UHGV virus genome: UHGV-0209072
Strand: one strand, 5' to 3'
From: a virus
Length of the DNA stretch: 37,335 nt
Positions 2,304 to 30,522 of the stretch are shown here, one piece after another. The stretch's first letter is position 1; the number at the start of each line of letters is the position of its first letter. A program made the translations under genes and the position numbers. Under the pieces are notes generated by a model. It saw only the letters and a list, made by a program, of their open reading frames with translations, ran no database searches and was not told where the DNA came from.

Positions 2304-2385
2304 TTTTATTAAAATAATACTTTTCTTTATAAAATCTTTATTAAGTGATAGAATTGACTTAAATTAATAAGCAGGAGTGTATGTT

Positions 2386-2757
2386 ATGGATTGGAAAGAA
2401 GTTGGAAAAAAAGCGTTAGATGTTAGTAAAAAGGCTACTGAGAAAAGTATTGATTCGTTCCAAGAATGGAAAAATGATCCAGAAAGAATCAAAAAAGCTG
2501 AAGAAAGAAAAAAAACAATCGATAAGAAACAAGATAAAAAAGCACCCATGTTTCATAACGGGGTTCACTGTCCTAAATGTCGTAGTATGAATGTAGAATT
2601 TATGCAAAATAACCGTAAAAGTTTTTCTGTAGGTAAAGCTGCAGGTGGTGCAATTTTAACAGGTGGCGTGGGTACATTGGCTGGATTCGCTGGAAAAAAA
2701 GGGAAAAATCAATGGCACTGCAAAAATTGTGGAAACACATTTACTTCAAAAAAATAG
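2386..2757 (+). CDS. Zn-ribbon protein with a Gly-zipper-like hydrophobic insert (moron)
   Basis: Two CxxC pairs (CPKC ... CKNC) flank GKAAGGAILTGGVGTLAGFAG, with an N-terminal Lys/Glu-rich helix. RBS AGGAG lies 8 nt before the ATG at 2386; the ORF track starts at 2377. Confidence 0.6.
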   Translation: MDWKEVGKKALDVSKKATEKSIDSFQEWKNDPERIKKAEERKKTIDKKQDKKAPMFHNGVHCPKCRSMNVEFMQNNRKSFSVGKAAGGAILTGGVGTLAGFAGKKGKNQWHCKNCGNTFTSKK

Positions 2758-9424: not shown

Positions 9425-12400
9425 CTATTTCTTGTTAACCAAATTAACTTTATTTTGATTTCTTGCTTCTTTTTGTTTAACAATTGTGTATATTTTATCT
9501 CCAACAAGTTCGGTATGAACTTCAAATACTGGTTCTTGTAATTGACTAGTTTTAACTTCTTCGCTTAATTCATTCATAGATGAAGAAAGCTTATTAGAGA
9601 CATTTCTAGTATCCGCCGTTAAAACAGAATTTGCTTCATATTCTTGTGATTTTATTGATGTTGCATATGCTAACGCTTGTCTATCAACTTGCTTTTGCAT
9701 TCTTGACATGCCGTTAACTAAACCCATCCCAACAAATCCCCCAATTTTATCGGTAACACGTGATGGCGAATGAATATCCAGTGCTTTCCTCATAGTACGG
9801 GCTACGTTACTAGCTATATTACTAGCAGTTGCGTAAATAGAACCCGCAGAATTTGCTAAACCATTTCTCAAACCTATACCTGCATTATAACCGATATTAG
9901 AAAGCGTTGAAGTCAATCCACTAAAAATGGAGTTTATTCGACTCGTGGAAGAAATCATTATGCTTGTCATTGAATTCATGCTATTCATAACGGCACTATT
10001 CATTCTATTCATACCATTTTGAACATTATTTGCCATTGAATTGAATGCTTGAGTATTTGCAGAATTTATCCTACTGAATCCCCCGTTAATAGTACTAACA
10101 ACACTATTCATTGTACCTGTCACATTTGACTTCATTGAGTTCATGGACTTCGTTACATTGTTTGACATCTGTGAAATGTCTTGCGAAGATTTATTATTAA
10201 TATTTTGTGTATTATTTGATACATTTTGAAACATTTGGTTAGAGGCACTAGAAGCTTGTTGGGTAGCTTGATTCATATTAGTGCCAACAGCATTCGCAGT
10301 ACCAGAGGTAGCCTGATTAACATTAGATAAAATACTATTATAGTCACTAGAGACACCATTTAGTGCACTATTAGACTCTTTTGTTGCAGCATTTGCTGCT
10401 TTAGTTGAATTTGAACTTACTACACTATTAAGGTTATTCATCGTTCCTGATACATTTGTAGCTAGTAGATTATAGTTTGAAGACGTACCATCTTTAGCTG
10501 CATTAGAAGCATTAATTGCATTGTTTGAGGCTTGTGTACTCAAATTACCTACATTTAAATTCATGTTGTTCATTGAATTAGCAACATTTGAACTTGCTTG
10601 TCCATAAGATGAACTCAAATTTGTAGCAGTAGTAGTAGCATCATTTGATACTTTTGAGCTTGTTTCAGATGACTTACCCGTTATTGTGTTCCATAAATTT
10701 GAAAACCCATTTTTAATACCATCCCAAGCTCCTTTTAAAACATTAGGAATAGCCTCTAAAATAGCACCAGCAAGAGCTTTAATAATATCCCACCCAGCAG
10801 CAATAATTTGTGGTAGCATCTGGATTACCGTGCCAATCAACGTCATAATGATTTGTATTCCCGAAGAAACGATGTTTGGCAAATTCTCAACAATACCATT
10901 AACCAAGGCCATAATAATTTGCATTGCTGCGTCTAGAATCATAGGTAAGTTTTCTACAATAAAATTACATAATGAATTTATAATTTGGACTGCTCCATCT
11001 AAAAGCTTAGGTATATTATCCATTAAACCTTGGATTAATGTTAGAATCGCGTTTAATGCGACAGGTAAAATTTGTGGCAATAATTGAGTAAGACCATCAA
11101 TTAAATTCTGAAGAATCTGAATACCCGTATCTATAATTTGAGGTAGATTTTCCATTACAGAATTAACAAACGAATCCAAGATTTTTTTCACTGATTCAAC
11201 TATTTTTGGTATATTTTGAATGATTCCTTTAACTATATTCAGCAAAAGTTCCATTCCCATTTTTAATAATTCAGGCAATGCACTTGCTATGGAGCTCAAA
11301 AATGAAGTAATAACTTCTAACGCTGAATTTATAAGAGACGGTGCATTTTGCCCCACACCTTGTACAAGACTTCCAATAATTTTCATACCTGAATCTATGA
11401 TTATTGGAATCATTGTAGATATAGCACTAGCTAGTTTAGCAATTAATTCAGTGCCACTTTGCATAAGTTGTGGCAATTGTGAGGTAATACCATTAACAAG
11501 ATTAGTTATAATTTCTGGGCCTTTTGTAGTTACCGTCTTTAATAATTTGTCAATTTGTGCTCCAAATTGATTATTGATTAGTCCCAATCCAGCTATAACT
11601 AATCCTAATATAGCTGCAGGTCCTATAGCTGATAAAGCTACTTGCATGATAGTTCCCATTGCAGAAGTCATGCCACCTAAGGCTCCCATACCAACAGAAC
11701 TTGCCATGGATAAGCTACTTCCTATTTTAGGAATTAAACCTATCAAACCTGTTAATCCAGAACTAAACATTTTGAACGGTCCGCTTATCATACCTCCTAA
11801 TATTCCTGAAAATGCTGAAAATCCGCTTGAAAGAGATGCAATTGCAGGAACTGCTTTACTGACTACTAGCGCGCTTCCCAATACAGCAGCTATAGGTAAT
11901 AGTCCTTGAATAGCACCTTTTAAAGCATCAATACTTTTTTTAGACAAATCAGTGCCATTGATAAAATGGTTTAAAACATTTGTAGCAACATCTACTGCTG
12001 CAGATATTTTATCCATATTAAAATCACCAATTTTATCTGTTAATTTGCTGACTGCTTCTATCCCTACTTGAGACAGTTGATCAAAAGCCGGTTGTAATTT
12101 ATTGGTGATTGTTTCCTTTAAGCCATCCATTGCTTGACCGACAGTTTTATATTCGGTAGCCATTTTTGAAAACGTTTCGTTTGTACCAGTTTTAGTTATT
12201 GCATCAAAGAAATCTTGAGTAGCAATTTTCCCATCTTGAACCGCAGTCACCATTTCAGAGGTTGACATGCCCATAGTTTTAGCAACAGCTGCAATACCCG
12301 CAGGAGTTTGTTCTAACATCAATTTAAAATCTTGCCATTGAACCATCGGTTTAGCAGCCATTTGTGTAGCTTGTTGACTTAGCGTTGTCATCGCTTGTGT

Positions 12401-13339
12401 CGGATTTTCAGCTGCCGCAGCTAATCCACCAAAACCCATAACCAATTTGTCAGTATTTTTTATTCCTACAGCTGCTAATTGACTATATGTAGTAGCCATT
12501 TCAGAAGCAGAATAAATTGTTTTAGTGGCAAAATCCTGTAGCTCTTTTTTTACAGATGCTATTTCATCTTTTCCTTTACCAATATTTTCCATATTAGCAT
12601 TGAAAGTTTTCCATGTAGCTGAGCCTTGGTTCAAGTCACCTATAATTTCTTTAAATCCGCTAGAAAGTGCTGATATGCCTTTTTGAGCTACCGCGTATGC
12701 TGCACCAATACCTATGATTTTTTTTACTAAATCATCTGTTGCTGATCCTGCTTTATTGGTTCCTGAAACCATCTTATTTAGTGCGTTAGACGCTTTTGAT
12801 CCAGCACTATTAAACGCTCCAGTTAATTTCGAACCTATATTAGTTCCCAAAGTAGTAATTTTTGAACTTATTTCACTAGCACTTGATCCAACAGCTTTAA
12901 ATGCACTTTTAAAAGGCTGTGGTATTTTAGAAGCAACTGTCGAAAATGCTTTACCAATTATTGATGTTTGTTGTGATAGTCCAGCTCCCATTTCTTTAGC
13001 TGAACTTACAACCGCATTCTTGGCAGCTGACATCCCTTTTTTAATTGGTTGTGGTATTTTTTCGCCGATTCCAGCAATTACACGTTGAATACCGCCGCCA
13101 GCTTTTTCAAATAATGCAACAGTTTGCGGTAAAACTTTAGAAACGCTATTTAGCATCGGATCAGCTAACTTACTCATAATTTGACCGACTTTTTGAGTAG
13201 TACTCATAGATCCGCTTTGTAATATGTTAGCAACATCATTCATAGTTTTATTCGCTATAGATGAAACTTTATTCATTGCAGCATTATATTGCGACAAATC
13301 AGCACCGATAACAGCGTTAATAGCACCTTCAAAAGCCAT
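9425..13339 (-). CDS. Tape measure protein
   Basis: 1304 aa. The N-terminal half is helical and Ala/Gly/Ser-rich. Periodic repeats of about 11-33 residues (LPQILPVALNAILTLIQGLMDNIPKLLDG...) occur. A C-terminal low-complexity N/S/T-rich block (MNNMNLNVGNLSTQASNN...) is present. Located just downstream of the chaperone genes. Confidence 0.9.
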   Translation of the reverse strand: MAFEGAINAVIGADLSQYNAAMNKVSSIANKTMNDVANILQSGSMSTTQKVGQIMSKLADPMLNSVSKVLPQTVALFEKAGGGIQRVIAGIGEKIPQPIKKGMSAAKNAVVSSAKEMGAGLSQQTSIIGKAFSTVASKIPQPFKSAFKAVGSSASEISSKITTLGTNIGSKLTGAFNSAGSKASNALNKMVSGTNKAGSATDDLVKKIIGIGAAYAVAQKGISALSSGFKEIIGDLNQGSATWKTFNANMENIGKGKDEIASVKKELQDFATKTIYSASEMATTYSQLAAVGIKNTDKLVMGFGGLAAAAENPTQAMTTLSQQATQMAAKPMVQWQDFKLMLEQTPAGIAAVAKTMGMSTSEMVTAVQDGKIATQDFFDAITKTGTNETFSKMATEYKTVGQAMDGLKETITNKLQPAFDQLSQVGIEAVSKLTDKIGDFNMDKISAAVDVATNVLNHFINGTDLSKKSIDALKGAIQGLLPIAAVLGSALVVSKAVPAIASLSSGFSAFSGILGGMISGPFKMFSSGLTGLIGLIPKIGSSLSMASSVGMGALGGMTSAMGTIMQVALSAIGPAAILGLVIAGLGLINNQFGAQIDKLLKTVTTKGPEIITNLVNGITSQLPQLMQSGTELIAKLASAISTMIPIIIDSGMKIIGSLVQGVGQNAPSLINSALEVITSFLSSIASALPELLKMGMELLLNIVKGIIQNIPKIVESVKKILDSFVNSVMENLPQIIDTGIQILQNLIDGLTQLLPQILPVALNAILTLIQGLMDNIPKLLDGAVQIINSLCNFIVENLPMILDAAMQIIMALVNGIVENLPNIVSSGIQIIMTLIGTVIQMLPQIIAAGWDIIKALAGAILEAIPNVLKGAWDGIKNGFSNLWNTITGKSSETSSKVSNDATTTATNLSSSYGQASSNVANSMNNMNLNVGNLSTQASNNAINASNAAKDGTSSNYNLLATNVSGTMNNLNSVVSSNSTKAANAATKESNSALNGVSSDYNSILSNVNQATSGTANAVGTNMNQATQQASSASNQMFQNVSNNTQNINNKSSQDISQMSNNVTKSMNSMKSNVTGTMNSVVSTINGGFSRINSANTQAFNSMANNVQNGMNRMNSAVMNSMNSMTSIMISSTSRINSIFSGLTSTLSNIGYNAGIGLRNGLANSAGSIYATASNIASNVARTMRKALDIHSPSRVTDKIGGFVGMGLVNGMSRMQKQVDRQALAYATSIKSQEYEANSVLTADTRNVSNKLSSSMNELSEEVKTSQLQEPVFEVHTELVGDKIYTIVKQKEARNQNKVNLVNKK

Positions 13340-13343
13340 TTAC

Positions 13344-13658
13344 TCACCTCCACTTTTTATTTTTGAAATAGTTCATCACTTCTTTTGCCTTTTCCACACG
13401 ATTGTATGTTTCTTCCTTTTCGTTTGTCGTAGCAAAAATAGATTTTATTTTGCGTTCAATTTTTTCTTTATCAAATACTTTTTTTATTTTTGGCTTCTTT
13501 GCATTCAAAACATATCTTAAAGTAAACGCATAATGGGCTTTTTGTTCTTGTTCATCTACACTTTTCAAAGCTAATCCTTCTAAAATCGCTTCTAACTCCC
13601 ACTTATAACAAGACATAATTAATGGAATATCCACTAATCCTTGCCTAGCACAATTCAC
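13344..13658 (-). CDS. Tail assembly chaperone, gpT-like -1 frame extension (likely expressed as a G-T fusion)
   Basis: The ORF begins (GTG) 1 nt inside the stop codon of the upstream acidic chaperone, in the -1 frame. That frame stays open for more than 15 codons upstream into gpG. Confidence 0.55.
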   Translation of the reverse strand: MNCARQGLVDIPLIMSCYKWELEAILEGLALKSVDEQEQKAHYAFTLRYVLNAKKPKIKKVFDKEKIERKIKSIFATTNEKEETYNRVEKAKEVMNYFKNKKWR

Positions 13659-14134
13659 TATGAGATTTCTTTCTTGATTCGATCTGCTAAATCTTTGACC
13701 GCTTTTGCTTGTTGCTCTGGATTTTGAATCTCTTCGGTCGGTTGTTGGCTCTTCAAGTAATCTGCTGCTTTCTCTAGATTGTTGATATATTTCTTCAATT
13801 TCTTCACGAAAAAACCAGAATCCAACATTTCTTGTTTAAGTGTTTCAAATACCATGCTGTATCCTTCTTCTTCATCTTCAAAAGTTTCCACAAAATCCTG
13901 AACAGACTTCGCAATGTCTTCATCTGTTACTTTATCTTTTGAAGCCAGCTTGATAATATCAAAAAGCGCATCATCATCTTCTTCTAGAACTTTTACAAAA
14001 AGAACACCTGCGCCATCATTTTGTGAGTTACCTTGAGCATCTTTTGTACCTAGCTTTTTATTAGCTTTAAATAACATTCCATAATTAAACTTAATTTCTA
14101 ATTGTTTCTCTTTTAATTTAACTGCAAATGACAT
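13658..14134 (-). CDS. Tail assembly chaperone (gpG-like, acidic)
   Basis: 158 aa and highly acidic (EDDDALFDII..FEDEEEGY). It sits between the MTP region and the TMP. Confidence 0.6.
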   Translation of the reverse strand: MSFAVKLKEKQLEIKFNYGMLFKANKKLGTKDAQGNSQNDGAGVLFVKVLEEDDDALFDIIKLASKDKVTDEDIAKSVQDFVETFEDEEEGYSMVFETLKQEMLDSGFFVKKLKKYINNLEKAADYLKSQQPTEEIQNPEQQAKAVKDLADRIKKEIS

Positions 14135-15021
14135 ATATTATTTCCTCCTGTTTTAGCCATTTTTATAGCTTCTATATATTTTATAGTTGCTTTATCTTTA
14201 GCCATATTATCTAACCTATCTTCAAAAGGACTAGTATTAACATATTTTCCTTTAAAAAATAAATCTTTATCTTTTTCAGTTACACCTGCATTGTGTAATA
14301 TTTTTGTTTCGTACCATTTATTGACTGGATCAGTTGGCCAGCAAAAATTTAATTCTTCATCGATTTTCGGGCCTATGTTAAAAACTAACATATTCCATAA
14401 TTGAGCCCACATTTCCGCAGTCCAAATTTGAATATTACTGTCTTGGTAATTTAAATACTTGAATAAACGTATTGAATCACAATAAACCTTTTCCCAATAT
14501 TCTTTTTTCGGATTGGTTATAACCCATTGAGCCCCACCTGAATTACTATTAATTGTTTCAAGTGATTCAAGATTGACACCAACTATACCGGACATCTCCT
14601 GCAATATTTTGTCTCCATTTTTGCAGCTACGTATATAATCAATATTTAAATAGCCATTACAATCTGAACAGTACCAAACATCCTCTTTCAAATTAAACTT
14701 GTTGAAATCAATCAGTTCTCTAAAAATCACATCTGAGTCCATATAGAAGTATGTTTCTTTTTCTCTACTAGGGTCTTCTTTTAAATATTGCCACCACAAA
14801 TAAGGCTTAATCGAAGGGATATAGCTTTTATCCCTTCGATTATCCTCATAAGTATGCACTGTTACACCATACTCTTCTTTAAAATACACAGGAATTGATG
14901 TATCATGTTTCGAAAAAAGCAATACGATGTCTTCAATTCCTACTTTTTTTAAATTAGTAAGACACACTTCTAATTCCCATTTAAATCTTTGAATCGCAGG
15001 CTGACATAATAGGTATTTCAT
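14113..15021 (-). CDS. Putative GT-A-fold glycosyltransferase (DXD motif) inserted in the tail module
   Basis: 302 aa with no place in the canonical MTP-G-GT-TMP order. YFYMDSDVIF (DSD) lies at about residue 95, after a predicted Rossmann-like N-terminal segment, as in nucleotide-sugar GT-A enzymes. Rich in W/Y/C. The assignment is by motif and position only. Confidence 0.4.
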   Translation of the reverse strand: MKYLLCQPAIQRFKWELEVCLTNLKKVGIEDIVLLFSKHDTSIPVYFKEEYGVTVHTYEDNRRDKSYIPSIKPYLWWQYLKEDPSREKETYFYMDSDVIFRELIDFNKFNLKEDVWYCSDCNGYLNIDYIRSCKNGDKILQEMSGIVGVNLESLETINSNSGGAQWVITNPKKEYWEKVYCDSIRLFKYLNYQDSNIQIWTAEMWAQLWNMLVFNIGPKIDEELNFCWPTDPVNKWYETKILHNAGVTEKDKDLFFKGKYVNTSPFEDRLDNMAKDKATIKYIEAIKMAKTGGNNICHLQLN

Positions 15022-15026
15022 TTTAA

Positions 15027-15656
15027 TTACCTTTGAGTTGTCGTTGTGGTTGTTGTAGGTCTTGTAGTGGTTGTTGTTGTTCCATTATCAATATTGCTAT
15101 AATCACCAGTAGTTTCTCCTGGGCGTTGGAATTGATACAAACTTTCGACCATTGCAACGTCTTCATCTGACAAAGGAAATGTTCCGTCTTGCAATTTCCC
15201 TACAATATTTAATGTGTAGCTAATTTCAACTAAATCTTCTCCTTCAGCATATTCTAATTCGTCAGGGATACCATAACCAAATTTAGCTGGATAAGCTTTA
15301 GTTCCGGCTCCTTCTTCCGTTGCAAGAGTATCGTCAACAACAACTCGCCATACTTTAACAGAATGTCCATTCTTTTTGGCTTCTTCAATAACATCAATTG
15401 ATTCATCATCGGGAGCAAAGTATTGTGTCAATTCAATACTATGTTCATCAGTTGACTTTAAAATTATACGCCCCATTTTTGTTTGTTCATCGATGTTGTC
15501 ACCGCCAATAGTTGTAGTACCATCTGTTTGAAATGCAGGCAAGAGAGCTGGAGATCCAATTGGTACTTGTGTGCTTTGAATAAAGTACCAAACACGGTTT
15601 CCTCTAATAGGTGTTCCTTGGAATTTTTTAATTCCGTTATTTACTGTTTTTGGCAT
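15027..15656 (-). CDS. Major tail protein with a C-terminal poly-Thr tag
   Basis: 209 aa with a TP901-1/phi13-like MTP N-terminus. Ends NGTTTTTTRPTTTTTTTQR. Confidence 0.8.
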   Translation of the reverse strand: MPKTVNNGIKKFQGTPIRGNRVWYFIQSTQVPIGSPALLPAFQTDGTTTIGGDNIDEQTKMGRIILKSTDEHSIELTQYFAPDDESIDVIEEAKKNGHSVKVWRVVVDDTLATEEGAGTKAYPAKFGYGIPDELEYAEGEDLVEISYTLNIVGKLQDGTFPLSDEDVAMVESLYQFQRPGETTGDYSNIDNGTTTTTTRPTTTTTTTQR

Positions 15657-17042: not shown

Positions 17043-18020
17043 TTACCCTTGTGTCGTAGTAGTCGTTGTTGTTGGTTTTGTCGTTGTCGTTGTTGTTTCA
17101 CCACTAATTGTTGCTTCTACTACACCTTCTGGAATTTCAGGGAATAATGTTAAAGCATTCATAAACAATGATTCAAATGTTGCATTTCGTAGAGTACGTC
17201 CACGAGTCGCTGAAATAAAACCAGTTTCATCAACAAAGTCCACAAAAATATCACCTAAATCAGATGCCTTCATATCCAAGTATGCTAATACGATATTGTC
17301 AACGGCGGTAGAATAAACCTTTCCTTCTGGGATTGCGTTTAATACAATAACGTTTGTTGCACCTAGAAAGTTTTTCAATAAGGTCATACCAAATACATTA
17401 GATGCATCTGCTAAGACTTTTGTATCCCCTAAGTAGGTTGCTACATCCATAGGATTTACAAAGGAAACAAATTGAGCGCCATCAAACTCTTCGAATGTAC
17501 TTAGTTTCCCCCATGATTGTGCTAACGCTTTTTGTAACCCTTCAGCTGGAATTTTAGTAGGAGCTGTCCCTAAAAAATTAACAAATTGCGTTTTAATTCC
17601 ACCTTGAATTTGGCGCAATAATTTTTCGTCAGATTGATCAATCGCAATAGATGCTCCATGACGAGCAATTGCTTCAGCAGTTACTGCACGGCGCCATTTA
17701 TTAAATGTTACTGTAAATGATTTTCCTTTAGCTCGAGTTACTTTGGATAAAGGAATATCATCGCCTTCCGCAACATTTCCATCTTTTAATGACGTTGTCC
17801 ATTTGTACATTTGAATTTTCATATCTTTAGATAAAGGTTCTAACCGTGTTACACCTAATAACTCTAATAATTCTTTGATGCCTTTCTCAAAACGATTCAC
17901 AAAATCAATGGATTTAATTTCTCCTAAATCGTCCATTTTTGTAAGGTCTGGTTCTGCCGCAAATAGTTGCAAATCCATTTTTAATAAACGTTCTTTATTA
18001 GTTTTTGACATATTTTTCAT
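17043..18020 (-). CDS. Major capsid protein with a Prp-type N-terminal leader and a C-terminal poly-Thr tag
   Basis: 325 aa, in position after the scaffold. The N-terminus is MKNMSKTNKERLLKMDLQLFAA|EPD. The C-terminus is GETTTTTTKPTTTTTTTQG. Confidence 0.8.
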   Translation of the reverse strand: MKNMSKTNKERLLKMDLQLFAAEPDLTKMDDLGEIKSIDFVNRFEKGIKELLELLGVTRLEPLSKDMKIQMYKWTTSLKDGNVAEGDDIPLSKVTRAKGKSFTVTFNKWRRAVTAEAIARHGASIAIDQSDEKLLRQIQGGIKTQFVNFLGTAPTKIPAEGLQKALAQSWGKLSTFEEFDGAQFVSFVNPMDVATYLGDTKVLADASNVFGMTLLKNFLGATNVIVLNAIPEGKVYSTAVDNIVLAYLDMKASDLGDIFVDFVDETGFISATRGRTLRNATFESLFMNALTLFPEIPEGVVEATISGETTTTTTKPTTTTTTTQG

Positions 18021-23241: not shown

Positions 23242-23687
23242 GTAGAATCATCCTCGAAAAACTGCTCGATTTCGACTGCTGCATCGGAAATATTAAGCGA
23301 TCCTGAAACCTCGGTTTCTCTTCGATCTCTCCACTCATCAGGCTTTCTGTTCTTAAGCCAGAAAATTGCGGATGTAGGGTTGGGCGCCACTTGTTTCGTT
23401 ACTTTTTTGGTTACTTCCATGCCCGCTTCTGTTAATTCTTTTGTAACTTCGGTGTATTCATAACCCACCGCACTTTTAAACAGTGCATTTTCAACTTGAC
23501 GATCTACAACTTCTTTTCCTCTTTTGAGGGCGGAAGAAATGGAAGAAAACCTCTTTTTCCAATCGGTAAATGTCCGTTCGGATACTCCAACATTTTGTGC
23601 GATTTGCTTATCGACGAGGCCATCTCGTGCCCACCCTTCGATTTTAATTAACCCTTCGTCAGTCAGCCACTCTGTGTACTTTGCCAT
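23238..23687 (-). CDS. terS: Terminase small subunit
   Basis: 149 aa with an N-terminal HTH (QIAQNVGVSERTFTDWKKRF). RBS AGGAGG. Immediately upstream of terL. Confidence 0.7.
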   Translation of the reverse strand: MAKYTEWLTDEGLIKIEGWARDGLVDKQIAQNVGVSERTFTDWKKRFSSISSALKRGKEVVDRQVENALFKSAVGYEYTEVTKELTEAGMEVTKKVTKQVAPNPTSAIFWLKNRKPDEWRDRRETEVSGSLNISDAAVEIEQFFEDDST

Positions 23688-23807
23688 GACCTCACCTCCT
23701 ATGTAATTTTATGTATAAAAAGAGACACCCAGCAAGTGGATGCCTCTCGTGAAGGATAGAAACATCTATTGACGTTTCCTAATTTATTTAAGTAGCTATG
23801 CTACCTA

Positions 23808-23880
23808 TTGGCGTGACAGGATTCGAACCCGCATCTTATCTCACACGTAATCAGTTGCATTACCACAATGCTACACGCCA
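23808..23880 (-). ncRNA. tRNA-like element (degenerate tRNA / tRNA pseudogene remnant)
   Basis: On the - strand: a 7-bp acceptor stem (UGGCGUG/CACGCCA), D-arm GCAU-UGUGGUA-AUGC, and a canonical T-loop GGUUCGAAUCC. No anticodon stem can be paired. Confidence 0.35.
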
Positions 23881-24480
23881 AACCAGAAGGAGCGACCTTC
23901 TAGCAATTGCTAATAAATCAAATTAACCTTTACACACTCTCGTCAGAATGTTTTCCCTTCAGGATGTAGCTTTCGCAGACTTTCACGGCTAAAATGATTA
24001 TGTCACTGGCAAGGATTTGCACCTTGTAAGGTCTATATTCCACCACAGTGACCAATCAATCAAACACCAGCAAAAACAATTGATTAAGTTTATCCTAAAC
24101 GTACCTAGCTGCTACTCTATGAGTTTAGGAATTGCTCTCGTGCGTAAGCAGCTGCCGCAGAGATCTGGTTAATGTTCTTATCGTCATATGATGGGATAGA
24201 GCAATATACCTAACCTCGACTAGTATGAATCAGGTAGTTACTACTGCATCCCTAGCAACTATTTGTGTCCCTTGCAAACTTGTAGAAAAAAGAGGAGGTT
24301 ATTCACCTCACTTCATTTTATTGAGAACGTAAGTCTGCAAGTGACCATCGAAAGTCAAAGTGAACGATGACTAAACGAGAAAGTGTGTAATGTGTCCATT
24401 TCTTTGACTTTCGATATTACTATATTAGCATTCAAATTCGTATAAAAACCGCCAACTTTACGCCAAAAAACCGCCAAAAA

Positions 24481-27971: not shown

Positions 27972-28412
27972 TTACAACATCAAATCACCAAGAAAAGCTT
28001 TTTTCATTTCCTTATAGATGGTTAGTTCATTTTCTGCCGTCGCTATTTCATCCGTGATATGATCCATCATCCGAACAAAGGCTTTTTGGGTTTCTCGATT
28101 GAATAACTCTATTGGAAAATTACCAATTTCCTTTTCTTGTATATTGATACCTGTTGCATACTTTGCAATAAATTTGTCTACATTTCTTTGTAGAATTAAA
28201 TTAAAATACTTAGGCTCAATTCCATTTTGAGGAATGATCACAACTTCCTTTGTTGGTACTTCCCTAGGATATTCTAGAAAGTCTATTTGGCCTTTCGTAG
28301 CCGATATTTGAATGGTTGATGTTCCAGCAGGATAAATGTATCCCGCTTTTGCCCTTCCAAATTCTGCCACATCTTCTAATTTGACACATTCAAAGTTATC
28401 AAAATCAATCAT
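27972..28412 (-). CDS. hsdS: Half-size type I specificity subunit (single target-recognition domain HsdS)
   Basis: 146 aa: one target-recognition-domain-sized region plus a conserved C-terminal helical repeat (ATAENELTIYKEMKKAFLGDLML). ATGA translational coupling with hsdM. Confidence 0.55.
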   Translation of the reverse strand: MIDFDNFECVKLEDVAEFGRAKAGYIYPAGTSTIQISATKGQIDFLEYPREVPTKEVVIIPQNGIEPKYFNLILQRNVDKFIAKYATGINIQEKEIGNFPIELFNRETQKAFVRMMDHITDEIATAENELTIYKEMKKAFLGDLML

Positions 28413-29725
28413 AATAGGCTCAATTGCTCCCCTTCCGCCGGTTCTGCTCTCTTTATTGGTCGTTTTGGCTTTTTACTGTCCTTATACCCAACGTGTTCCG
28501 AAAAGAATGAAGCAAACTCTTTTATTTGTCTATCAGCTTCTGGCGTAGTTCCGACTAAATCATTCATCATTTTGGCTAGCTCGATATTATTTTTTGCAAT
28601 CTCTTGCTCTGTTTGTTTCATTTCTGCCATTATTTCAGATAATGGCTTTACAGGTTCTGGTTCAAAAGTATCAATATAACGTGGTATGTTTAGATTAAAG
28701 TCATTTTCTTTCAATTCTTCGATAGTAACTACACTGCTAAACTTATCAACTGCTTTTCTTGATTGGAACACTTCTAAAATTTTAGCAACATGTTCGTCTT
28801 CTAAAACATTCCAAGCCTTTTCCTTTTTAAATTCCTTGCTGGCATCAATGAATAAAATATTTTTATTCAATCGGTTCTTTCTTAAAACTAGAAGAACCGT
28901 TGGAATATCAGTATTCATAAATGCTTTTGCAGGTAGTCCAATAACTGCATCTAGCAGATTCTTTTCAATAAGTTTCTTGCGAATCTTTTCTTCTGCAGCA
29001 CCTCGAAACAAAACGCCGTGCGGTAAAATAATAGACATCACACCATTTTCTTTTAGTTGATGGATACCTTGTAATAAAAAGGCGTAGTCTGCTTTTGATT
29101 TTGGTGCTAATACATCAAAATCCGAAAAACGCTCTTGCTCTAAATACTCTTTTAATGGATTCCAAGGGAGCGAGTAAGGTGGATTCATGATGACCGTTTC
29201 CGATTTAGTCGCTGATACTTCATCAACAATTTCAATAGAGCTAAACTCAGTTGATTTTGTTAATTTGTATATTGCTTTAAACTCACGACTTAATGAATCA
29301 CCATGTAGAACTACGGCATTTATATTTCTGATTGCTAAATTAAACAAGAGAAATGGCAATGCACGATCTGAAAACTCCTCACAATAAAACTGTGCATCAG
29401 GATTTTCTGCATATCGTTTAATTGTTAAACCGCCAGTTCCTGCACAGATGTCTGCATTGGAACGAGTCGCCCCAAGAACTCCACTGGCAACCCGAATGAT
29501 TCCGTCTGGTGTAAAATCTTGTTTCTTTCCTTTTCGATCTGAATGTTCCGCTTGAAAATATTCTGTGAACCAATCAAATGATAGGTCTTGTTCTTCTTTA
29601 AAAAAGTTGGTAAATAGTAGTTCTCGTTCGCTTGGACTACTTAATATTTCAATCAATTTATAGGAAGCATGAAAGCTTTCATCAACACCTAGCAGTTCAT
29701 TTATTTTTTCTGTTGTTAATTTCAT
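28409..29725 (-). CDS. hsdM: N6-adenine DNA methyltransferase, type I HsdM-like
   Basis: AdoMet motif DICAGTGG, catalytic NPPYS, LPHGVLFRG and C-terminal NIPRYIDT are typical of HsdM. No hsdR is present. Confidence 0.75.
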   Translation of the reverse strand: MKLTTEKINELLGVDESFHASYKLIEILSSPSERELLFTNFFKEEQDLSFDWFTEYFQAEHSDRKGKKQDFTPDGIIRVASGVLGATRSNADICAGTGGLTIKRYAENPDAQFYCEEFSDRALPFLLFNLAIRNINAVVLHGDSLSREFKAIYKLTKSTEFSSIEIVDEVSATKSETVIMNPPYSLPWNPLKEYLEQERFSDFDVLAPKSKADYAFLLQGIHQLKENGVMSIILPHGVLFRGAAEEKIRKKLIEKNLLDAVIGLPAKAFMNTDIPTVLLVLRKNRLNKNILFIDASKEFKKEKAWNVLEDEHVAKILEVFQSRKAVDKFSSVVTIEELKENDFNLNIPRYIDTFEPEPVKPLSEIMAEMKQTEQEIAKNNIELAKMMNDLVGTTPEADRQIKEFASFFSEHVGYKDSKKPKRPIKRAEPAEGEQLSLL

Positions 29726-29778: not shown

Positions 29779-30522
29779 CTATTTATTTTTCTCTAAAACT
29801 TTTTTAAATATGTCATCGACTAATTTTTCTGGAATATTTGATCGTTCATTATAGCTTTTGGAAAAATTGCCCCAGGCAATTTCTTGTTTAATAACTTTAT
29901 TTTTCAATCCCAAATGAATATTACTGGCAAATTTCGTGGGCTTCTGTAATGGATAATCATAATTGTTATACCTGGTTAAATTTTTAAATGGTAGTTTAAA
30001 ATTCAAGACATCTTCAATATATTCCCAAATTTTACCATTAGCCGGGTTCTCAATAATGAAATATCTGGGTTGGTACTTTTTTATAATTTTTATAGTATTA
30101 AAAACCGTTAACTCACCATTCACTCTTTTTAAAAATTGTCGTTCATAAACATAATTAGTATCTTCGTAATCTTTTGTGGTTCTTATAGTAAACGGGCTTG
30201 GTAATATCTGTGGTGCAAATAAATTATCTGTTACATCTTCTCTTTTCCAACAAGCATTACCATTTTTCATTGCACTAGCTACTGACCAGCTTTCGCACGG
30301 TGGGCTTGCAATGATTAAATCTGGCTTAGGTAATTTGTCTAAAACTTTGAATAATTTATTATCATTAAACATATAAGAATAGTCCGCTAAATTCAGATGA
30401 ATAAAATGGTCATTCTTGTTTTCAATATCCAAACCTATGCTGTATATTTCTATATCTTCAAACTTTTGTGCAGAACGTTTATAACACCCGTTCCCACTAT
30501 CAAATAATGCCCATACTATCAT
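29779..30522 (-). CDS. Small DNA (cytosine-5) methyltransferase
   Basis: Motif I-like ALFDSGNG, motif IV PPCESWS (PC catalytic Cys) and motif VI ENPANG. At 247 aa it is short for a C5 methyltransferase. Confidence 0.5.
   Translation of the reverse strand: MIVWALFDSGNGCYKRSAQKFEDIEIYSIGLDIENKNDHFIHLNLADYSYMFNDNKLFKVLDKLPKPDLIIASPPCESWSVASAMKNGNACWKREDVTDNLFAPQILPSPFTIRTTKDYEDTNYVYERQFLKRVNGELTVFNTIKIIKKYQPRYFIIENPANGKIWEYIEDVLNFKLPFKNLTRYNNYDYPLQKPTKFASNIHLGLKNKVIKQEIAWGNFSKSYNERSNIPEKLVDDIFKKVLEKNK

Follow-up and report, generated by a model that had tools for sequence, protein, structure and literature searches.

The complete 37,335-nucleotide virus genome UHGV-0209072 (the window), from a temperate Enterococcus faecalis siphophage, encodes a 302-residue predicted glycosyltransferase (GT) directly after a tail-tube protein that ends in runs of threonine (Thr). 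The major capsid protein of the same phage ends in a poly-Thr tag of the same design. We consider it likely that tags and enzyme form an acceptor-tag and transferase cassette for O-glycosylation of the virion. In the proposed mechanism, the GT would be a soluble, cytoplasmic, metal-dependent GT-A enzyme, synthesized late in infection along with the structural proteins. It would use a host nucleotide-sugar, with Mn2+ or Mg2+ as the metal, to O-glycosylate Thr residues in the disordered tags of capsid and tail tube, and head and tail of the virion would end up coated with sugars. The tag and the enzyme would be a two-part unit that is portable and has passed from one structural-protein family to other, unrelated ones. 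Possible pay-offs include shielding from antibodies or proteases, altered adsorption or sticking to cell-wall polysaccharide or mucus, and solubility.

The presumed acceptors are the major tail-tube protein (15027..15656, minus strand; PF06199, E 2.8e-9; phrog_238, E 3e-55) and the major capsid protein (17043..18020, minus strand; phrog_544, E 6e-70). The capsid protein ends in ...GETTTTTTKPTTTTTTTQG and the tail-tube protein in ...NGTTTTTTRPTTTTTTTQR. The tail-tube tag, TTTTTTRPTTTTTTTQR, is encoded at 15030..15080, and the capsid tag, TTTTTTKPTTTTTTTQG, at 17046..17096, both on the minus strand. The tags follow the design T6-[K/R]-P-T7-Q-x and are about 17 residues long. The first-pass annotation of this DNA had pointed out that both proteins end in poly-Thr; they are the only minus-strand ORFs (open reading frames) of at least 60 residues in the window with a run of at least four Thr near the C-terminus. 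Both tags have the same peptide design, but they are encoded by different synonymous codons (52 of 76 nucleotides identical), indicating selection on the peptide and not recent duplication of the DNA.

The tag also coincides with a change in relatedness to other phages. The core of the tail-tube protein (residues 1-192) is 99.5% identical to that of the phiFL phages, whereas identity drops to 80% in the adjoining GT, and neither tag has the length or the repeat number of its phiFL counterpart. The segment of tag and GT thus appears to be a mosaic unit, and the sharp mosaic junction at the tag suggests that tag and GT are exchanged together. The tail-tube protein is 40% identical to SPP1 gp17.1. 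In SPP1, the tube protein's C-terminal extension is displayed on the exterior of the tube. The tags are probably positioned on the outside of head and tail.

The first-pass annotation had linked the tags to the transferase, and the link extends well beyond the window. The GT-positive set comprises 86 loci, namely 80 viral-contig loci and 6 cultured-phage regions, and an ORF is counted as tagged when a run of at least five Thr lies within its last 30 residues. All 86 loci contain at least one tagged ORF, and a tagged ORF lies directly upstream of the GT in 83 of them. By comparison, 135 of the 1,848 other ORFs of these loci are tagged. Tag and GT also occur together in distant cultured phages, including Lactococcus phages 1706 and bIL285, Enterococcus phage VPE25, Staphylococcus phage SA2, Clostridium phage phiCTP1, and the Lactobacillus myophage Bacchae. 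In phage 1706, the capsid and tail-tube proteins share the same ending (TTTTTTTTTHHD).

The neighbour of the GT varies from phage to phage. In the window, in the phiFL phages, and in 1706, SA2, and phiCTP1, the GT comes after the tail-tube gene. In bIL285 and in prophages of the E. faecium and L. casei types it comes after the capsid gene, and in other phages after the gene for a small tagged protein (119-140 residues). The tag carriers belong to capsid families phrog_544, phrog_10, and phrog_29, to tail-tube families phrog_238 and phrog_117, and to the small immunoglobulin-like or decoration-type families phrog_14018/341 and phrog_909. The placement between tail-tube gene and tail chaperones that had been remarked on from the window therefore holds here but is not fixed elsewhere; the constant feature is a tagged gene next to the GT.

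Homologous structural proteins from phages that lack the GT lack the tags. The controls are seven GT-less phages: Streptococcus Javan47, 315.6, and Javan311, Lactobacillus phage Bassarid, Bacillus phage SPP1, Pediococcus phage cIP1, and E. faecalis phage phiEf11. The three streptococcal phages are the closest, with capsid proteins 61-62% and tail-tube proteins 56-60% identical to those of the window. Their capsid proteins stop a few residues after ...EIPEGVVEATI, and their tail-tube proteins stop at ...PGETTGDY.NI; both ends coincide exactly with the start of the poly-Thr stretch in the window. The Bassarid, SPP1, cIP1, and phiEf11 proteins stop at the corresponding point and are likewise untagged. 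After de-replication of the GT-positive set to 15 GT lineages below 90% identity, tags are present in 15 of 15 lineages and in 0 of 7 controls (Fisher p = 6e-6). In addition, phage records with a homologue of the tail-tube protein contain no GT in Streptococcus (0/42) or Bacillus (0/14), as against 77 cultured-phage records that do carry it.

The converse sample starts from the tag. Of 120 sampled viral loci with eight consecutive ACN codons, 6 contain a member of the GT family, as compared with about 0.02% of all contigs. The poly-Thr ORF abuts the GT in 5 of these 6 loci, and very divergent environmental phages are among them.

The GT gene (14113..15021, minus strand) starts with ATG and is present as the first-pass annotation described it. 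The structure model of its product is a single Rossmann-like alpha/beta/alpha domain with GT-A topology. The model matches Skp1 alpha-galactosyltransferase (value 15.5), LgtC (15.4), GlyE of the serine-rich-repeat adhesin pathway (15.4), glycogenin (15.2), LARGE1 (15.1), WbbM (15.0), UGGT (14.8), and the capsid-glycosylating protein A64R of PBCV-1 (11.3). Foldseek searches of the model against the PDB and a viral library give the same picture. A structural tail component, the alternative identity against which the fold was to be checked, is ruled out by this result. The outcome of the computational checks suggested in the first-pass annotation is favourable to its reading throughout. By the modelled fold and by its motifs, the protein is a member of the GT-A superfamily, and in the model it resembles the GT8 type.

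In the model, the DxD motif D95-S96-D97 (14731..14739, minus strand) is located after the β strand of residues 90-93. It lies within YFYMDSDVIF, the motif on which the glycosyltransferase proposal had originally been built, and is presumed to bind Mn2+ and the nucleotide-sugar. H243 of the HNAG motif (14293..14295, minus strand), at the end of the strand of residues 241-243, is a candidate third metal ligand. In GT8-type enzymes, the metal-binding triad consists of the DxD motif and a downstream histidine. The spacing of D95, D97, and H243 is presumably like that of D103, D105, and H244 in LgtC. All three residues are invariant in an alignment of 39 close relatives. In an alignment of 70 representatives with 30-49% identity, D97 and H243 remain invariant and D95 is kept in at least 90%; the GGAQW and WTAEMW motifs are nearly invariant down to 30% identity.

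This pattern of conservation is that of an active enzyme and speaks against a non-catalytic protein that has retained the GT-A fold to serve as an assembly chaperone or as a lectin-like binder of the poly-Thr tails. Such a protein would fit a gene that sits among assembly genes beside a tail chaperone, co-occurs with the tags, and has no sequence match to curated GT families. However, some members of the family are fused to further glycan-modifying catalytic domains, and together with the conserved residues this makes a non-catalytic role very unlikely. The fused members are 580-780 residues long (P0165, P0179, P0200, and P0256), and their additional domains are Glyco_transf_7C (a second GT domain), a weak GT25-like stretch, Methyltransf_24, and a radical-SAM domain with SPASM. 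Fusions of this kind are typical of glycan-building enzymes and hint that other phages make more complex glycans or modify the tags in further ways.

In spite of the fold, the GT cannot be placed in a curated family by sequence, so that the GT2, GT8, or GT32 assignment envisaged in the first-pass annotation cannot be made. Searches of the protein against Pfam, NCBIfam, the PDB by phmmer, and PDB profiles give nothing meaningful, and no GT is found among the PDB sequence or profile matches. Pfam Glyco_transf_8 (PF01501) matches neither the window protein nor any of the 70 family members at E up to 1. The most frequent sequence match is HPAT (PF23452), which is found in 4 of the 70 members and is weak (best E 1.3e-4). 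The match is co-linear and the model has a similar length (307), but all family matches, including an inspected member with 10.5 bits, fall below the gathering score of 23.9 bits, and the window protein itself is unmatched. DUF6492 also appears among the 70 members, below threshold. The only sequence-level match of the GT protein is phrog_4417, for which no function is annotated.

The family is large. It has more than 1,000 matches in a 90% clustered database, from Enterococcus, Listeria, lactobacilli, and many Bacillaceae, and an exhaustive search yields 869 clusters at 50% identity. Cultured phages with the GT include Enterococcus phages VPE25, VFW, and 9183, Lactococcus phages 1706 and bIL285, Clostridium phage phiCTP1, Staphylococcus siphophages of about 90 kb, and Lactobacillus myophages of about 140 kb. 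In every record examined, members are annotated as hypothetical or are uninformatively named. In the record of Lactococcus phage 1706, the neighbours of the GT homologue are labelled as structural proteins, a label that the homologue itself does not have. The family has been overlooked because no Pfam or NCBIfam model matches it.

The GT gene is packed into the late structural operon. Only 5 nucleotides separate the stop codon of the tail-tube gene from the start of the GT, and the 3' end of the GT overlaps by 22 nucleotides the start of the gene for tail assembly chaperone G (13658..14134, minus strand; PF12363, phrog_183). A promoter and terminator scan of the GT gene finds no flanking terminator and promoter-like sites that are no commoner than in shuffled sequence. 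Downstream follow a frameshift-type T-frame ORF 3' of the chaperone (13344..13658, minus strand; phrog_2567) and then the tape measure gene (9425..13339), whose product has 1304 residues.

The position of the gene bears on whether the GT acts on the host instead. Its target might be the wall teichoic acid or the Epa polysaccharide of the host, one of the host's proteins, or a lipid carrier, and the altered cell surface would serve superinfection exclusion, lysogenic conversion, or easier release, the tags being unrelated hydrophilic linkers. The GT-A fold alone does not specify the acceptor, modification of teichoic acids is an established function of prophage GT-A enzymes (for example, TarP of S. 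aureus), and the window phage, with its integrase and repressor, is temperate. Nevertheless, we regard action on the host as unlikely. The gene lacks a promoter and terminator of its own and is part of the late structural operon, not of a lysogeny or moron region; it is also carried by strictly virulent phages (VPE25, 1706, and Herelleviridae phages of Lactobacillus); and its product contains no membrane-like or transmembrane segment. In addition, an acceptor on the host would leave unexplained both the adjacency of tag and GT in 83 of 86 loci and the untagged homologues in GT-less phages.

Glycosylation of phage DNA at a hypermodified base, as protection against restriction, is the least probable of the alternatives and can be nearly dismissed. 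Phage GTs that act on hydroxymethylated bases are well known, and a preprint describes diverse virus-encoded DNA glycosyltransferases. However, the complete genome contains no hydroxymethylase, no TET-like enzyme, and no nucleotide-modifying pathway, and has two DNA methyltransferases instead. The GT itself lies in the structural operon beside tagged proteins, not among the replication genes. The annotation of the phage genome likewise contains no other candidate substrate pathway.

Several observations count against glycosylation of the virion by the tag and transferase cassette. The literature searched contains no chemical evidence of a glycan on virion proteins of GT-carrying phages, and no proteomic or glycostain data for any GT-carrying phage. 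By sequence, no curated GT family contains the enzyme. The phage has a single GT and no sugar-nucleotide genes; the simplest product would therefore be a single monosaccharide on each Thr, to which host enzymes may add. In the converse sample, C-terminal poly-Thr ORFs have no GT of the family nearby in 11 of 12 loci, many of which are short contigs, so that poly-Thr tails exist without a phrog_4417-type GT, the only type screened for. Finally, in phiFL2A (NC_013643, about 23415..24321; locus L001, 3977..4723) the GT is frameshifted and the tags persist. The split GT of phiFL2A falls in an unannotated gap between gp48 and gp49, and the gene is intact in phiFL1A/B and phiFL2B. The frameshift may be a sequencing error or may mark a recent pseudogene.

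The closest precedent for the proposed cassette is found in mycobacteriophages. In Che8, Corndog, and Myrna, phage GTs have been connected with modified capsid and tail-tube proteins of the virion, as summarised in PMC12363180. The two systems are alike in having a phage-encoded GT, C-terminal extensions on capsid and tail tube, an enzyme in the cytoplasm of the infected cell, and sugars on the virion, the enzyme activity and the sugars being predicted in the present case. In the work of Freeman et al. (2023, Cell Host Microbe 31:1216), capsid and tail-tube protein alike reportedly have their acceptor sites in C-terminal extensions, and the glycans are reportedly O-linked. Among the papers found to cite Freeman et al. 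2023, none extends virion glycosylation to Firmicutes phages, and a 2026 paper treats it as a feature of some actinobacteriophages, the sole group for which the literature searched reports it. Searches on glycosylated virions of Gram-positive phages, on poly-threonine tags, and on 1706 proteomics return no report for a Firmicutes phage either, in agreement with the statement in the first-pass annotation that such glycosylation is known from mycobacteriophages and not from Firmicutes siphophages.

The systems also differ in several respects. The hosts are Firmicutes here and Actinobacteria there. The GT described here is unannotated (phrog_4417, no Pfam family), whereas the mycobacteriophage enzymes are recognisable as GTs, and no mycobacteriophage protein is among the best 50 viral fold matches of the GT in BFVD. 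A single GT is present here, as against two or more GTs with accessory enzymes. The GT gene abuts an acceptor gene here, whereas gp110 of Che8 is at the far end of the genome, judging from gene numbering. The acceptor here would be a poly-Thr tag that is stereotyped and short (about 17 residues), and glycosylation is predicted here, not measured.

One published anomaly in an Enterococcus phage has no bearing on the cassette. The tail protein of phiEf11 (L094, 9121..9714) runs at 28-30 kDa, as compared with 21.5 kDa predicted, and its capsid protein gives two bands (PMC5221750). We dropped this gel behaviour as evidence of glycosylation, because the structural module of phiEf11 is of another kind and contains neither GT nor tags. 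The phage therefore serves as a negative control, and its gel anomaly is not explained by the tag mechanism.

Among characterized enzymes, the nearest in fold are distant in sequence. Identity is only 9-13% to the GT8-type enzymes LgtC, glycogenin, GlyE, and the xylosyltransferase domain of LARGE1, to the GT77 enzyme AgtA that acts on Skp1, and to the GT24 enzyme UGGT. The GT8-type enzymes are retaining. The HPATs (CAZy GT95) O-glycosylate hydroxyl side chains in disordered peptides, as proposed here for the tags, and differ from the phage GT in acceptor residue, donor, and organisms. In the biosynthesis of serine-rich-repeat adhesins (GtfA/B and GlyE), a GT-B pair initiates glycosylation and GT-A enzymes extend it. 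In the phage cassette, by contrast, a single GT-A enzyme would initiate on Thr, and the acceptors would be virion subunits with very short tags. A64R of PBCV-1, a chlorovirus and thus a eukaryotic giant virus, participates in the synthesis of atypical N-linked glycans by several viral enzymes, and that system, unlike the phage cassette, has no terminal acceptor tag.

Taken more broadly, we lean towards the view that the poly-Thr tag and its transferase are a self-contained, horizontally mobile cassette with a new GT family, that virion O-glycosylation is widespread in Firmicutes phages and extends to some environmental phages, and that the tag of about 17 residues could act as a programmable glyco-tag. 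With similar, moderate confidence, the phages concerned include therapeutic-candidate phages of Enterococcus and Staphylococcus and dairy phages of Lactococcus and Lactobacillus. If so, glycan coats would be common in phages of Enterococcus, Staphylococcus, Listeria, Lactococcus, Lactobacillus, Clostridium, and Bacillaceae, and phages in experimental use, such as VPE25, may be glycosylated. Glycosylation of such phages would affect immunogenicity, pharmacokinetics, adherence to mucus and cell wall, and the interpretation of cryo-EM (cryo-electron microscopy) and proteomics data. In actinobacteriophages, virion glycosylation blunts antibody recognition, which is relevant to phage therapy. A tag that suits proteins of unrelated families might be put to use for programmable glyco-tagging, and a new GT family with so short and transplantable a tag would be a tool for glyco-engineering. 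In addition, phrog_4417 and its tagged partners would become annotatable across databases.

Tagged proteins of several phages show further variation. In Staphylococcus phage SA2, an ORF over the 3' end of the tail-tube gene (L085, 11667..11930) encodes a long Ser/Thr-rich stretch, …TTTTTSTSSTTSTTTTSTTT…, and may give a longer tagged tail-tube isoform by frameshifting. In two environmental contigs (L181, 996..5975, and L193, 3114..8114), the gene directly upstream of the GT encodes a protein of about 1,660 residues in which poly-Thr lies some 90 residues before the C-terminus. The acceptor is thus presumably not always a capsid or tube subunit, and the tag is not strictly terminal. In VPE25, the tail tube is tagged and the capsid protein is not, and ETTTTTTKKP occurs internally in a protease- or scaffold-like protein (L083, 6119..7297) whose gene lies upstream of that for the capsid protein. 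In Bacchae, gp068, gp069, and gp071 around the GT all have Thr-rich tails (L084, 14057..16161), and nearly half of gp069 consists of a (TTTSTTTVKP)n repeat. The Bacchae GT cluster lies among replication and transcription genes, not in the structural module.

Over the 4.8 kb compared, the window is 100% identical to phage 1_EfsPF36; its identity with phiFL1A/B/C and phiFL2A/B, of the Phifelvirus group, is about 93%. Its modules comprise repressor, integrase, lysis genes, tail, head, packaging, replication, and two DNA methyltransferases. The region of the GT (14001..15000) has a G+C content of 0.307, compared with about 0.34, the lowest among the structural genes, which is consistent with acquisition as a separate module. 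Within the GT gene, codons 60-72 (14808..14842) contain a perfect 14-bp inverted repeat with an RNA fold of -18.7 kcal/mol. This hairpin is probably incidental, as the equivalent segments of relatives fold weakly (-2.7 to -10.3 kcal/mol). Elsewhere in the window, a 126-residue ORF (2377..2757, plus strand; phrog_6837, of unknown function) with weak zinc-finger-type relatives is the sole gene in the interval from integrase to lysis genes, where lysogenic-conversion or moron genes are usually located. The two DNA methyltransferase genes adjoin each other in the early region (28409..29725 and 29779..30522, minus strand) and presumably act against restriction.

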